Positions 19,785 through 25,775 of a DNA stretch of 52,582 nucleotides are shown here, in pieces. The notes below the pieces were generated by a model. That model made no database searches and was not told where the DNA came from. It was given only the letters and a program-made list of their open reading frames with translations. The stretch is from Candidatus Saccharimonadota bacterium. GTDB taxonomy: Bacteria > Patescibacteriota > Saccharimonadia > Saccharimonadales > JAQGHD01. Positions within the stretch are counted from its first letter, which is position 1; the number at the start of each line of letters is the position of its first letter. The stretch covers positions 1-52,582 of the forward strand of contig JAQGHD010000027.1 of assembly GCA_028288965.1 (NCBI GenBank). The letters run 5' to 3'. The translations under genes were made by a program, and so were the position numbers.

Positions 19785-20621
19785 ATGAACAAAACAAAAA
19801 TCATGACATTTAGACGAGTCAGCGCCTTGCTGGGCCTGGCTTTACTGGTGGCTTTAAGCATTTGGAGGGTGGGATTGGCGCAGTCGGTGGTGCAGAGCTA
19901 TAAAGCTGGTGGCACATTAGAGCGCGGCATGATTATCGGCCTGGACGCTAAAGATCCTACTAAGGTTGCGGCGCTTACCAATGACACCATTAACCGTATG
20001 CATGGGGTTATTGTTGATCCTAACGACGCCCCGGTAGCCTTATCTCAAGCCGGACAAGATGTCTTTGTGGCAACCACTGGGAAGTATGACGTACTGGTGT
20101 CCGATCAAAACGGTGGTCTAAAAGCCGGAGATTATGTCAGTATTTCGAGTGTTGCAGGCATTGGCCAAAAGGCTAATGACCAACAAAATTACGTCATTGG
20201 CAAAGCACTGACTGGCTTTAATGGCAAGACTGGTGTGGTCAGCGTAACACAAGTTAAAAATGGGCAGGGAACCAGCGATGTCTCCATCGGGCGCGTAACG
20301 GTAGATATTGGCGTGTCCAGAAATCCCACTGCCCGTCCCCTTGATCAGAATATACCGACCTTTTTGCGACGAGCCAGTGAAGCGGTGTCTCAAAAACCAG
20401 TTACCGCCCTTAAAATGTACAGCGCTGCCACCATACTGGCCATCACTGTGGCCATCACGGCCAGCATGCTATTTGCCGGTACCCGGAGCAGCATTCTAGC
20501 CATTGGCCGTAACCCTTTAGGCAAGGGTTCTATCATGCGGGGCCTACTAGAGGTCATTATAGGCAGCATTATCATATTTATCGTCGGCCTCTTCATCGCC
20601 TTCCTGCTCTTAAGGCATTAA
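19785..20621 (+). CDS. Secreted-domain protein with a C-terminal ATP synthase subunit-c-like hairpin
   Basis: Signal-peptide-like N-terminus; beta-rich domain (GDYVSISSVAGIGQKA..VIGKAL); two C-terminal TM helices joined by SILAIGRNPLG. Confidence 0.65.
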   Translation: MNKTKIMTFRRVSALLGLALLVALSIWRVGLAQSVVQSYKAGGTLERGMIIGLDAKDPTKVAALTNDTINRMHGVIVDPNDAPVALSQAGQDVFVATTGKYDVLVSDQNGGLKAGDYVSISSVAGIGQKANDQQNYVIGKALTGFNGKTGVVSVTQVKNGQGTSDVSIGRVTVDIGVSRNPTARPLDQNIPTFLRRASEAVSQKPVTALKMYSAATILAITVAITASMLFAGTRSSILAIGRNPLGKGSIMRGLLEVIIGSIIIFIVGLFIAFLLLRH

Positions 20622-20651
20622 GGCTGAGTTTAAGGCGCTATATCGTTAATT

Positions 20652-20695
20652 AAAATGGGGTGACAGTCGGCGGGGAAATCAGTTGACAGGACCCC
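20652..20695. repeat. Palindromic intergenic repeat, copy 2 (degenerate)
   Basis: AAAATGGGGTGACAGTCGGCGGGGAAATCAGTTGACAGGACCCC matches the core of copies 1 and 3. Confidence 0.75.
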
Positions 20696-20769
20696 TTCAT
20701 TTTTGCGATTCAGAGCGTGATTTCATGGTATAGTACTACTGATAAACATAAGCAGGTCAAAGAACAAAC

Positions 20770-21877: not shown

Positions 21878-23297
21878 TAATCGCCACTTTGACCAGTTAG
21901 TAAAAAGCGGCCGGCCGGTGGGTGAGGTCGTGAGCGTCGATCGCTTCATTGTCCGGCTTAAGGGACTTCAGCCGATTAACACCCACTCCTTAATTATGTT
22001 TGAAGATGGCAGCAAGGGTTTTGTGCGCTATATTCAGGAAGATTTTGTGGTGGTGTTGCACCTTGGTAGCAAACCGTTGCCGATTGGCATGCTGGCGGTC
22101 TTACAGCACAGTGAACTGGTTAGCAAAGTGGGCAAGGATTTTATAGGCCGAGTAATTTCGGTTACCGGTGAGCCGCTTGATGGCAAGGGCCCGATTGCTG
22201 CCGATGATGTCTGGCCGGTGTTTAATCCGGCGCCAAATTTATACGAGCGCGAACAGCTAAATGATCAGCTGGAAACGGGCATTGCGGTCATTGATTCACT
22301 CTTCCCGATTGTCCGCGGCCAGCGTATAGCTATTTTAGGCGACAGTAAGTCCGGTAAAAGCACTATGGCTACCCAACTAGCTATGAATCAAACCAAGGGC
22401 GATATGGTGGTGGTTTACGCCTTAATTGCCAAGCGCCGTAGTGATGTTGACGCACTTCTGAATAACCTAGAAGAAAGTGGGGCTATTAAAAACTCAATTG
22501 TCGTGGTGGCGACCATGTTTGAGTCATTAGTTATGAGCTATTTGGCACCGTACGTGGCCTGCTCGCTGGCTGAGTATTTGTGGCAAAAGCACGATCAAGA
22601 TACGACCATTATTTATGACGATTTGACCAGCCACGCTCACGTATACCGAGAAATATCACTCCTTACCGGCAGTAGCCCGGGGCGCGATTCATACCCAGGC
22701 GATATGTTTTACGCACACTCTTCGTTACTCGAGCGAGCTGGCCGGTTGAGCCGCAATCACAAGACCTTGACCAGCTTGCCTCTAGTTTTGGCCAGTGGCG
22801 GCGATATTACGGCTTATTTGCCGACCAACATCATGTCTATTACCGACGGGCAATGGATCCTGGATATGGAAGTCTTTCGTAACGGTTTGCGACCGGCCCT
22901 CAATATTGGGTTGAGTGTGACTCGTGTTGGTGGACGGGGACATAACGATCGCCAGAAAAAGCTCAATGGCCAAGCGTTTAAGGTGTACGGTGCCTATCAG
23001 CAAGCCCAAGAGTTTGCTCACTTTGGTTCGGAGCTGGCTTTGGCGGCGCGCAAAGATCTAGAAACTGGTAAGCGCATGAATGAGTTATTTAATCAGCCGG
23101 CTACCGAACGCTTTTCAGTGTTTGACCAGCAGCTAATGCTCGACATTGTGCTGAACGTGGCCGATGGTGAGAGCCTGGACATGCAAGCCATGAAAACAGC
23201 CGTGAAAGATCTGGCTGCCCAAGCCAAAAGCGATGATGATTTTGATAAAATTCGCGATGCCTTAAAGGGCAAAAGCCTTATGGAGCTCAAGAAATGA
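21870..23297 (+). CDS. atpA: F1-like ATPase subunit alpha (divergent)
   Basis: [19 protein letters not shown]-loop [40 protein letters not shown] and SVTRVGG. Confidence 0.9.
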
Positions 23298-24151
23298 GAC
23301 GGGCCCAAGAAATAGCTGACGAAGAACACTCCATGGCCACCATTGGTGAGCTGAGCAGTGCTTTTGAGGGCATTGCCAGTATGCGCATTGCTCAGATCAA
23401 AAACCAAGTGCTGGAGTCCCAAGATTTCTTTAACGAGCTATGGAACATTTATCGCCAGATTGCCGTGGATCCAACATTTGGTTATGGGCGTAAAAAGAGC
23501 GAAAAAAAGGTTATCGAAAAAGGCTTGTTTATTGCCATTACGGCAGAAGGTAGTTTTAGCGGCGATATTGATGAAAAGCTAATCACGTGGATGCTTAAAG
23601 AGTTCGATCCCGCCAAGCACGATATTATTGTCATTGGTCACCATGGTGCCCTGCAACTTGCTCAACACGATATCTCATTTAAACGGTATTACAAGCTGCC
23701 CGAAAAAGACCAAAACATCAATGTTGAGCCAATCATTCAAGAAGTTGAACAATACCAAGACACCACTGTTTATTACCAATCGTATGTGTCGTTGATGGTG
23801 CAAGATGTAAAACGGATTACGCTTGGTAAGGCCGTTGAGGATCAGGGTAAGCGGTCTAAGACCAAAGACGATATTATTAATGAGTCGACCTATATTTTTG
23901 AGCCCAGTACGTATGCTGTGGTTAATCACTTGGAGCGTTCCATGATGCAAATTGCGTTAAGCCAGGTAATCTTTAATTCCAAGTTGGCACAATACGCCAG
24001 TCGCTTCCGAGCTATGTCCTCGGCTCACACTAAGGCCGATGACTCACTAGAAGAACTTCATACGCTGTACAACCGTGCCCGGCGCGCCAACAAAGACGAG
24101 CGGCTTAAGGAAATTATTAATGGACTGCATAAATTGAGGTCTACCACATGA
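23294..24151 (+). CDS. atpG: F1-like ATPase subunit gamma (divergent)
   Basis: N-terminal helix (AFEGIASMR), [15 protein letters not shown] and [13 protein letters not shown]...YNRARR. Confidence 0.85.
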
Positions 24152-25455
24152 ACCCAGGCGTTGTCCGTACCATTAGAGATCTGGTGATTCAGGTTGTTTT
24201 TGATGACCAATCTCCGGAGCTGGGTGAGGTTGTGGTGGTAGACAATGCCAAACACACCGTGCTGCTGGTAGACAATTTATTACCGGGTGGGGTGGCCGTC
24301 TGTTTAAATCTACTGACTGATTACACAGTTCAAAAAGGCATGACTGTCCAGCGTACCGGTAAAGGGATGGAAATCCCAGTTGGCGAAGCCACTATCGGCC
24401 GTATTTTTGATGCCCTAGGACGGCCCCTAGACGATCAACCGCCAATCAGTGGCGAAAACGTTAAGACCAAGGATATTTTAAAAATTCCCCCGCGCAGCAG
24501 CAGCTTTAAAATTGCCAAGCCTCAGATACTTGAGACCGGTATTAAGGTCATTGATTTCTTTACCCCGTTTGTAAAGGGTCGCAAGATTGGCATTATTGGT
24601 GGCGCTGGAGTAGGTAAGACCGTGCTGACCATGGAGTTGATTCATAACATTGCCAAAAGCGGTGAGGGATTAAGCTTCTTTACCGGTATTGGTGAGCGTA
24701 TTCGAGAGGGCCATGAACTGTACGAAACGCTCAAAGAGCGTGACCTGCTCAAGAACACCTGCATGTTCTTTGGGCAAATGAATGAAAACCCCGTGCAACG
24801 TTCATTGGTTGCCATTTCGGCGGTCTCTTTAGCAGAGTATTTTAGGGATGAGCACCATAAGGACATACTGTTCTTTGCTGATAACATGTACCGTTTTGTC
24901 CAGGCTAAGAACGAGCTGTCAACCATTTTAGACCAAGTTCCGGCCGAAGGTGGCTATGAGCCGACTATTTTCTCGGACGTCAAGGTGCTCCAAGACCGTC
25001 TAAGCTCCAACGAAAACGGCTCAATTACCTCTGTTCAAACCATCTACGTGCCGGCTGATGATTTAAGTGATCCCGCGGTACAGGCTATTCAGCACGAACT
25101 TGATTCAATTATTGTGCTGAGTCGTAAAGTAGCTGAGGAAGGCATTCGTCCGGCTGTGGATCTTATCCGCACTACTTCTTCTTTGCTGGCACCGAGCATT
25201 GTGGGCGATCAGCATTATGTGTTGAGCGTGCAAGTCCAGGCTCTGCTCCAAAAATATGAAAGCTTACGCAATATTATTGCCATTATTGGTGAAAACGAAT
25301 TATCGCCAGCCGATCGCGCCGACTATGCCAAAGCCAAAAAGCTCATCCAATACTTTAGCCAGAACATGCACGTGACCGAAGACCTAAATGGCGTAAAGGG
25401 TGAGTATGTGAGCCGAGCCGATATGCTCAGCGGCATAGAGGAGATTATTGTTTAA
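24148..25455 (+). CDS. atpD: F1-like ATPase subunit beta (divergent)
   Basis: [38 protein letters not shown] and [20 protein letters not shown]. Confidence 0.92.
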
Positions 25456-25775
25456 TGGCTGCGCACCAAGATGCCAGTACGGGGGCAATTTCGGCCGAGT
25501 CGGTGGCTGCCAAACCGGCCGATGCCCGGCATCCGGTTATGCACGTTAAGGTCTACTCGCCGTTTAAAACCTATTTTGATGAGTCAGCTGACAGTATTTC
25601 GGCAGTTAACGCTACAGGCCCGTTTGACATATTACCTAGGCACCACAACTTTATGACGCTGTTAAGCGCCGGAGAGTTGATTATTCGCCAGGGCACTGTC
25701 CAGCACAAGATTCGCATCTCGCGCGGGGTCATGCACGTCAAAGCTAACCAGGTTATCGTTTTCCTCGACGTTTGA
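25455..25775 (+). CDS. atpC: F1-like ATPase subunit epsilon, N-terminal beta-sandwich only
   Basis: VKVYSP, GPFDILPRH, L..GEL and ISRGVMHVKANQVIVF; ends without the C-terminal helices. Confidence 0.8.
   Translation: MAAHQDASTGAISAESVAAKPADARHPVMHVKVYSPFKTYFDESADSISAVNATGPFDILPRHHNFMTLLSAGELIIRQGTVQHKIRISRGVMHVKANQVIVFLDV

Follow-up and report, generated by a model that had tools for sequence, protein, structure and literature searches.

A widespread F-type-derived operon of Patescibacteria with a candidate c-like rotor subunit fused to a secreted domain and without subunit a

Does a set of F1-like genes that comes with neither a subunit a nor an ordinary subunit c belong to the ATP synthase of its host, or does it encode a separate machine? 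The question is raised by positions 19785-25775 (forward strand) of a stretch of 52,582 nucleotides (nt) from Candidatus Saccharimonadota bacterium (assembly GCA_028288965.1, contig JAQGHD010000027.1); the whole of this stretch is called the window here. An earlier reading of the locus, made from the letters and the open reading frames (ORFs) and referred to below as the sequence-only reading, had proposed a second, repurposed F-type machine. Our analysis supports the view that the operon represents a distinct system, very widespread in Patescibacteria, with a c-fusion rotor subunit (p1) as its distinctive component, and that in this system an F1-like ATPase has probably been turned to non-bioenergetic work. 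The ORF list gives seven co-directional ORFs for the span, in the order that had been read from the sequence (c-like fusion, b-like, delta, alpha, gamma, beta, epsilon):

19785..20621, + strand: p1, 278 amino acids (aa) from the ATG at 19785, the longest ORF starting from a GTG at 19752; signal peptide, ectodomain and C-terminal c-like hairpin
20770..21390, + strand: b-like peripheral-stalk candidate, 206 aa; a single N-terminal transmembrane (TM) helix followed by a long helical region
21365..21877, + strand: delta (OSCP)-like subunit, 170 aa; PF00213 at 24.5 bits
21870..23297, + strand: alpha-like non-catalytic subunit, 475 aa; PF00006 at 232.7 bits
23294..24151, + strand: gamma-like central shaft, 285 aa; PF00231 at 105.1 bits
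24148..25455, + strand: beta-like catalytic subunit, 435 aa; PF00006 at 214.9 bits
25455..25775, + strand: epsilon-like subunit consisting of the beta-sandwich only, 106 aa; PF02823 at 56.9 bits over residues 29-104

The gap between p1 and the b-like gene measures 148 nt, and from the b-like gene to epsilon each stop overlaps the next start (by 26, 8, 4, 4 and 1 nt, using the longest-ORF starts), as had also been read earlier. The base composition of the operon region is unremarkable, and a promoter and terminator scan of positions 19400-26200 gave no excess over shuffled sequences (4 vs 8.4; 9 vs 7.9).

The genome to which the window belongs (915,775 bases in 30 contigs, 94.4% complete; the window is its contig C3) contains one match to PF00119 (subunit a) and one to PF00137 (subunit c), both on contig C25, and four matches to PF00006 (alpha and beta), two of which lie on C25 and two in the window. 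Contig C25 carries a complete canonical operon, made up of an atpI-like gene, a (277 aa), c (82 aa), b, delta, alpha, gamma, beta and an epsilon of 146 aa that has its C-terminal helices. Because this operon is complete, we could rule out that the window holds one half of a single split canonical operon, and the separate atpBEFHAGDC set that the sequence-only reading had asked for is indeed present, as is the lack of a subunit a and an ordinary c in the window itself. We also observed extra small ORFs inside the C25 operon (C25:42850-44688), a 113-aa one between atpA and atpG and, between atpG and atpD, two of 95 and 116 aa; other genomes of the order, e.g. at L106, L108, L110 and L113, have gaps of 0.3-1.2 kilobases (kb) at either or both junctions.

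The coexistence of two systems is common among relatives. In a sample of 201 genomes from the same GTDB order (per-genome counts compiled by hand; the unpublished G032 is included), p1 occurs in 153 genomes (118 of 152 genera), PF00006 in 186 and PF00119 in 175; related genomes are not independent, and these counts are therefore descriptive and not tests. The p1-bearing genomes measure about 0.6-1.7 megabases. Both systems, i.e. p1 and subunit a together with at least four PF00006 matches, are found in 125 genomes, while 10 genomes have p1 and two PF00006 matches with no subunit a, 27 have subunit a and two PF00006 matches with no p1, and 10 have none of the three. Thus p1 tracks the extra alpha/beta pair in the order: it is present in 126 of the 129 genomes with at least four PF00006 matches, compared to 6 of the 33 with subunit a and exactly two. 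The extra pair is never accompanied by an extra subunit a; two PF00119 matches each are found in G068, G111 and G156, and some genomes show odd PF00006 counts (1, 3 or 5). One genome, G054 (98% complete, 4 contigs), has the p1-type operon as its alpha/beta pair and gives no PF00119 and no PF00137 match. Six genomes, all with p1, have six PF00006 matches; these three alpha/beta pairs occur in G010, G017, G032, G056, G069 and G077, and two of the pairs of G077 are p1-type operons of differing subtypes (C1:41-45 kb and C1:436-439 kb).

The arrangement of the operon is likewise conserved. All of the nine closest loci have the identical seven-gene order, and among 80 loci from named metagenome-assembled genomes (labelled Saccharibacteria, Saccharimonadales, Saccharimonadia, Patescibacteria group or 'bacterium', and in one case Limnocylindria) all seven genes are present in 55, the remainder being cut by contig ends, with p1 adjacent in every one of the 55 complete loci. 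Not one of the 80 has an atpB- or atpE-like gene within about 9 kb. Variants exist: p1 stands at the operon end in G067, and immediately before alpha, with b and delta undetected, in G077 and G434.

A profile search with p1 against 401 genomes of the phylum (the unpublished G347 among them) matched 152, many of them by the ectodomain only, inside giant ORFs. For other families we considered 20 loci, each surrounding a full-length p1-like gene. Alpha, gamma and beta adjoin p1 in 18 of these, and epsilon also in 17 (no epsilon ORF was detected at the beta end of L090). A single-TM protein of 197-268 aa occupies the b position in 14 of the 18, most of them with delta too; in L081 the 246-aa ORF at this position has no segment above the hydropathy threshold, and in L072 the corresponding ORF lies on the far side of alpha. 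The b profile picks up two of the b-position proteins, with 18-20 bits. Between p1 and alpha, neither the window nor any of these loci has a multi-TM gene. At L081, L082, L088 and L091 we noted an ORF that matches epsilon (58-72 bits) on the opposite strand right after beta, in convergent orientation.

Ten of the other-family genomes were checked for their complement of rotary ATPases. Three (G569, G362, G213) have, in addition, a canonical operon that includes subunit a; G221 (L120, G221:C1:436500-442500) has no subunit a and combines the p1-type operon with an A/V-type-looking A/B pair (602 and 462 aa); the remaining six (G512, G255, G537, G323, G390, G434) have the p1 type only and no PF00119 match, at 95-99% completeness and, in three cases, as single contigs. 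The PF00006 scan of the other-family genomes gave extra matches of about 107 bits. PF00137 stayed below its cut-off in all five genomes checked that have the p1 type without subunit a. The consistent absence of atpB that had been named as a check on the earlier claim is thus seen both around the named loci and in near-complete genomes that carry the operon, and on this evidence subunit a appears to be needed neither in cis nor in trans.

With regard to the F1 subunits themselves, the Pfam scores listed above exceed the cut-offs of PF00231 (39.9 bits), PF02823 (27 bits) and PF00213 (22.3 bits), the last barely, while p1 and the b-like protein have no Pfam family above cut-off and no NCBIfam match. 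The top-scoring NCBIfam models are the canonical atpA and atpD, which rank above the N-ATPase, MSC_0618/0619 and gliding-motor models, but all canonical equivalogs stay below their curated cut-offs (atpD 439 vs 462.85; atpA 384.2 vs 484.45; gamma 86.2 vs 194.45; epsilon 46.1 vs 67.25; delta, TIGR01145, 24.3 vs 57.5). Against the PDB, beta scores 325-377 bits with canonical beta chains and 288 bits with the beta of the Mycoplasma mobile G1-ATPase. Alignment shows that beta retains the P-loop GGAGVGKT, the GER.RE catalytic stretch (GIGERIREG), Walker B and the adenine-binding Tyr, one of its stretches being altered to ENELSPAD, and that alpha retains the P-loop GDSKSGKS and the Arg finger SVTRVGG; these features recur across homologs, and the motifs picked out in the sequence-only reading are all among them. 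Hydrolytic catalysis by beta and alpha therefore looks intact. Epsilon lacks the C-terminal helices of the 146-aa canonical epsilon, again across homologs; in the canonical enzyme these helices are inhibitors of hydrolysis.

The component that sets the operon apart is p1. An AlphaFold2 model built on a 74-sequence alignment (mean predicted local distance difference test score 88.7, predicted template-modelling score 0.61) places a signal-peptide-like helix at residues 9-30, strands at 35-179 that form an ectodomain of about 150 aa, a short amphipathic helix, and a hairpin of two helices (208-242 and 244-277). The predicted topology is that of subunit c: behind the signal peptide and the ectodomain, the hairpin turns through a basic cytoplasmic loop and both termini are outside. 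This loop reads GRNPL, and GRNPE stands at the same place in 21 of 21 canonical c subunits of the order, including that of the own genome. GRNP is found in all of the 120 best p1 homologs, and R, N and P are invariant in a p1 alignment that spans other families at a mean column identity of 30%. In canonical enzymes gamma and epsilon dock on the R-Q/N-P loop of c. A Foldseek search of the PDB superposes the hairpin on the c subunit of Chloroflexus (9itt_I) with a template-modelling score of 0.90 and a root-mean-square deviation of 1.1 A over 67 columns (24% identity, E 0.05-0.06) and on bovine c (6z1r_L) with a score of 0.81, solved c subunits ranging over 0.81-0.90. In a single BLASTP comparison the window's p1 and the genome's own c subunit share 12 of 22 residues (E 0.003). 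The likeness is clearer in p1 homologs of other families: in a search of 21 such sequences, a profile of the order's c subunits reaches E<1e-3 in 8 and E<0.01 in 14, with the best match covering model positions 17-79, i.e. nearly the whole hairpin. Moreover, the only PF00137 match of genome G434 falls within its p1 gene (14.8 bits, vs a cut-off of 24), and among the 120 WWE3/Woesebacteria-type matches listed, p1 homologs bear a subunit c label from JGI in 10 cases and from NCBI in 1. Altogether 431 p1 homologs were found at E<=1e-3 in the protein collection; those with names are all 'hypothetical' and come from Saccharibacteria or Patescibacteria.

What the hairpin lacks is the ion-binding residue. 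Between R+10 and R+29, in helix 2, an acidic residue (Asp or Glu) is found in 1 of 120, 4 of 21 and 1 of 20 sequences of the three p1 sets, whereas all 21 canonical c subunits have one. A Glu in the hairpin of the window's p1 is an exception, as 118 of the 120 best homologs have Gln at that position. Taken together, the loop, the superposition, the profile matches and the pipeline labels lend support to the 'c-like fusion' of the earlier reading and argue for p1 as a derivative of subunit c, fused to a secreted domain and devoid of the ion-binding carboxylate. Compared with subunit c proper (PF00137), the two-helix hairpin, the cytoplasmic Arg-Asn-Pro loop and the topology match; the position behind a secreted domain, the missing Asp/Glu in helix 2 and a score below the Pfam cut-off differ.

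Where the head subunits branch was examined in quick IQ-TREE searches with SH-aLRT support (a Shimodaira-Hasegawa-like likelihood ratio test) only. The beta tree (57 rows, rooted with six alpha sequences; LG+G4 and C20 posterior-mean-site-frequency models) groups canonical Patescibacteria beta with the canonical beta of Escherichia coli, Monoglobus and Mesomycoplasma hyorhinis (SH-aLRT 97-99); three N-type betas are sister to this clade (98), and the MSC_0618 beta of M. hyorhinis, whose branch is long, comes next out (92-93). Outside the canonical, N-type and MSC_0618 sequences fall the 31 p1-type betas, in two main groups (a Saccharimonadia type and the other families) and two single rows. 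The alpha tree gives the same picture (canonical clade 92), with an E. coli row that is a 269-aa fragment and mycoplasma rows on long branches. Long branches may drift rootward, other phyla are thinly sampled, and the monophyly of the p1 type is not settled by these trees; at the strength of quick trees, they place the p1 type as a separate lineage outside the canonical and N-type clade and not as sister to MSC_0618. The alpha and beta of the window accordingly do not group with ordinary subunits of the candidate phyla radiation.

How does this system relate to the F-type machines already described? With canonical F1Fo (atpBEFHAGDC) it has in common the delta-alpha-gamma-beta-epsilon series, translational coupling of the genes, a protein with one TM helix at the place of b and, as the first gene, one for a c-like hairpin; it differs in the missing subunit a, the 278-aa c-like fusion without ion carboxylate, the truncated epsilon and the position outside the canonical clade. 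N-ATPases (atpDCQRBEFAG) are likewise second F-type operons that coexist with a main enzyme, but in the named N-type loci that we compared they keep subunit a and an ion-binding c, have no separate delta and follow another gene order. The NCBIfam alt_F1F0 models also stay far from their cut-offs (beta 408.2 vs 752; alpha 333 vs 750.5; gamma 37.7 vs 282.35), and we rejected an N-ATPase identity on gene order, on these cut-offs and on the grouping of N-type subunits with canonical ones.

The closest parallel in kind is found in mycoplasmas. As set out in PMC12994834, F1-like X0 (the MSC_0618 family, 'Type 3') and the G1-ATPase of M. mobile ('Type 2') are extra F1-like sets without subunit a; F1-like X0 is needed for the MIB-MIP antibody-cleavage system, and both are modelled as passing force across the membrane to surface proteins. 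The p1 system resembles them in that an extra alpha/beta/gamma/epsilon set without subunit a accompanies the true ATP synthase of a host-dependent bacterium with a reduced genome, and in the proposed role, i.e. ATP-driven force transmission to surface proteins. Next to the MSC_0620/MMOB1650 type of protein, p1 has the same architecture (signal peptide, ectodomain and two C-terminal TM helices), but the hairpin of M. hyorhinis MSC_0620 has no GRNP and scores 5.3 bits with the p1 profile. In contrast to X0 and G1, the p1 system keeps delta and a b-like stalk, belongs to a different phylum, and has no 12-TM protein (MSC_0624 family) or small cytoplasmic protein, the flanking genes of the window matching unrelated families. 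Membership of the mycoplasma families was rejected since the NCBIfam cut-offs were failed (MSC_0618/0619: beta 389.6 vs 570, alpha 270.5 vs 520; MMOB1660/1670: 352.8 vs 850, 306.4 vs 600), the other proteins of the cluster are lacking and the trees show no sister relation. In the course of these comparisons we noted that a PLSDB entry for M. hyorhinis 'plasmid 3' (NZ_LR214949.1; L092, L099; 843,827 bases) holds both a canonical atp operon and an MSC_0618-family cluster and looks like a chromosome. Full-text searches of the literature gave no description of a p1-type operon. A preprint (10.64898/2026.10.01.756066) states in its methods that 'unusual genomic neighborhoods' of candidate phyla radiation beta homologs were examined, and its sections 3.3 and 3.4 do not describe the p1-type operon.

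The ectodomain of p1 has no Pfam family, but a comparison with predicted viral structures gave 39 matches at E<=1e-3 (best 2.4e-9), which include preneck appendage proteins, DUF2190 head-decoration-type proteins and tail proteins; against the PDB it bears a weak resemblance to phage capsid decoration proteins, and the ESM Atlas, for leads only, points in the same direction. Across the phylum this domain also turns up within giant ORFs, which range from 1,000 to 6,895 aa. In the own genome, a secreted protein of 1,524 aa with two CBM_4_9 stretches (C15:47395-51969, L121) was seen to contain a copy of the ectodomain core at about residues 1140-1250, 41% identical over 54 residues. Stand-alone paralogs of p1, 24-33% identical to that of the window and without F1 genes nearby, occur at L025, L029/L117, L030, L035/L118, L036, L038/L119, L039 and L086. 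Of 11 such paralogs examined, 8 have a giant ORF (759-2,856 aa) directly behind them on the same strand; two of the giants scanned contain the p1 ectodomain fold, and by Pfam two of four have beta-propeller/LVIVD or YadA-head plus Peptidase_S74 domains.

Downstream of the operon the window continues with further genes for surface proteins:

26043..27050, - strand: membrane-anchored bactofilin-like repeat protein, convergent with epsilon; PF04519 at 24.5 bits, below the cut-off of 27.9
27180..32152, + strand: five secreted proteins, recognised by domain matches (paralogs of 244, 368 and 347 aa, one WxLIP-like and one PKD-like)

The bactofilin-like gene adjoins the operon in 50 of the 55 complete named loci and the 244-aa gene follows in 45; the divergent operons L023/L115 and L031 are flanked by the same block as well. 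In the 20 other-family loci we did not detect these neighbours next to the operon, except for WxLIP-like matches in L072; the association could therefore reflect nothing more than conserved gene order. We regard the bactofilin-like and secreted neighbours as conserved, without counting them among the components of the system. Upstream, positions 9363-16946 of the window hold an NAD salvage cluster (NAPRTase, an NrtR-like Nudix regulator, an ADP-ribosylglycohydrolase, NAD synthase and a cytidylyltransferase-like gene of the NMNAT type).

What, then, might the operon encode? The explanation that we hold somewhat more probable than all others together is a paralogous, F-type-derived rotary machine that would hydrolyse ATP, would be uncoupled from ions and would act on the cell surface. 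That it is a second and repurposed machine, as the sequence-only reading had it, is borne out by the canonical operon on C25, the position in the trees and the absence of atpB; as to the functional part of that claim, we infer that ATP may be burnt to turn a membrane rotor. The alpha3beta3 head would hydrolyse ATP and turn gamma-epsilon, which would dock on the GRNP loops of a membrane oligomer of p1, while delta and the single-TM b-like protein would hold the head as stator. The p1 oligomer and gamma-epsilon would thus turn against the delta/b-like stator. Ion translocation requires a membrane carboxylate together with subunit a; because the system is without subunit a, no ions would be moved. 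Since there is a secreted beta domain on every p1, the ectodomains would deliver torque, or else a change of conformation, outside the cell, with mechanical work on surface structures, and not ATP or membrane potential, as the product. Retention of the peripheral stalk across the phylum speaks for a continued importance of torque between head and ring. A more specific version, in which the p1 oligomer is an ATP-driven extracellular rotor whose crown of ectodomains engages the giant fibres or a neighbouring surface-protein complex, is tentative, and we give it a good deal less than an even chance; it would amount to an envelope motor for attachment, movement or host-cell manipulation that is powered by ATP and not by proton-motive force, in bacteria which are not known to have a respiratory chain.

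Several observations weigh against this proposal. By sequence, the case that the window's own p1 hairpin is homologous to c appears weak: PF00137 gives no match to it at E<=1, hhalign aligns its C-terminus to canonical c over 12 columns, those of the loop only (probability 47.8%), and the p1 profile finds just two matches in the PDB, a c subunit at E=3 and a spurious CCR6 fusion. In the Foldseek search of the PDB, too, all p1 matches lie above E 1e-3, and a hairpin of two helices is a simple fold. Helix 2 of p1 has a conserved polar residue, Gln at R+14 or Asn at R+15, which could serve some binding function. The 'b-like' label of the earlier reading stands as far as position and architecture go, but not by sequence (hhalign probability of 5.8% and E 0.0065 against canonical b), and the protein remains a candidate that is not demonstrably a b subunit. 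Once subunit a is gone, the stator is without a known membrane anchor against the ring, and an ectodomain of about 150 aa on each hairpin may not fit a tight c-type ring, which is an estimate and not a computation. Finally, in G049, G098, G009 and G077 a b-to-epsilon operon is found with p1 elsewhere in the genome.

Some of these points could be read in favour of an enzyme that still translocates ions, either with the canonical subunit a in trans or with an unrecognised partner and the Gln/Asn of p1 as ion site. Such an enzyme would account for the retained delta and b-like stator parts, for a hairpin that resembles c and conserves a polar residue in its helix 2 and for the coexistence with one subunit a in 125 of 201 genomes of the order. 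We nevertheless consider it unlikely, for the hairpin has no conserved membrane carboxylate, near-complete genomes with the operon and without PF00119 exist (10 in the order and 6 of 10 elsewhere), the loci of the phylum show no multi-TM gene in or beside the operon, and the 80 named loci have no atpB-like gene. The product of the F1-like genes might instead be an ATPase that is soluble or attached loosely to the membrane and acts without p1, which would itself be an independent surface anchor. The distance of hundreds of kb between p1 and the b-to-epsilon operon in G049 would fit this, as would the stand-alone paralogs that adjoin giant ORFs (8 of 11 examined); yet p1 adjoins the operon in 18 of 20 other-family and 55 of 55 complete named loci, genomes with an unlinked p1 still contain p1, and an invariant GRNP loop of the c type is hard to explain without a gamma/epsilon partner, so that we judge this explanation quite unlikely.

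An ATP-driven machine for the export or assembly of surface proteins, in which the p1 oligomer would serve as pore or platform in the manner of the F/V-related export ATPases, seems improbable to us. A heterohexamer with inactive alpha, a gamma shaft and epsilon has the features of a rotary enzyme and not of a homohexameric export ATPase; export-gate genes were not seen in the loci of the phylum, and the secreted-protein genes, whose conservation beside the operon within the order speaks for such a role, were not found beside it in other families. The presence of the p1 ectodomain fold in giant surface proteins and in phage appendage and decoration proteins is the other point in its favour. 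That the operon is merely a decaying, functionless duplicate of the ATP synthase operon, as scores below all curated equivalog cut-offs and long branches might suggest, is scarcely credible, given intact reading frames, catalytic motifs conserved across the phylum, presence in 153 of 201 genomes of the order and retention where the canonical operon is gone.

The p1 system may have consequences for how these genomes are read. On the evidence given here, a large share of the alpha and beta genes of Patescibacteria belongs to a different machine, without ion channel or ion-binding rotor, and in several near-complete genomes, where the p1 type is the only rotary ATPase, an 'ATP synthase present' call based on alpha and beta would be wrong. 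If p1 does form an extracellular rotor, the 'F-type ATP synthase' credited to p1-only lineages would not be bioenergetic at all. Genetically tractable Saccharibacteria, provided that they carry a p1-type operon, would allow these predictions to be tested. The system would then be a rotary ATPase with an extracellular domain on its rotor subunit and, beside the F1-like ATPases of mycoplasmas, a second and independent case of an F1 motor put to mechanical work at the cell surface.

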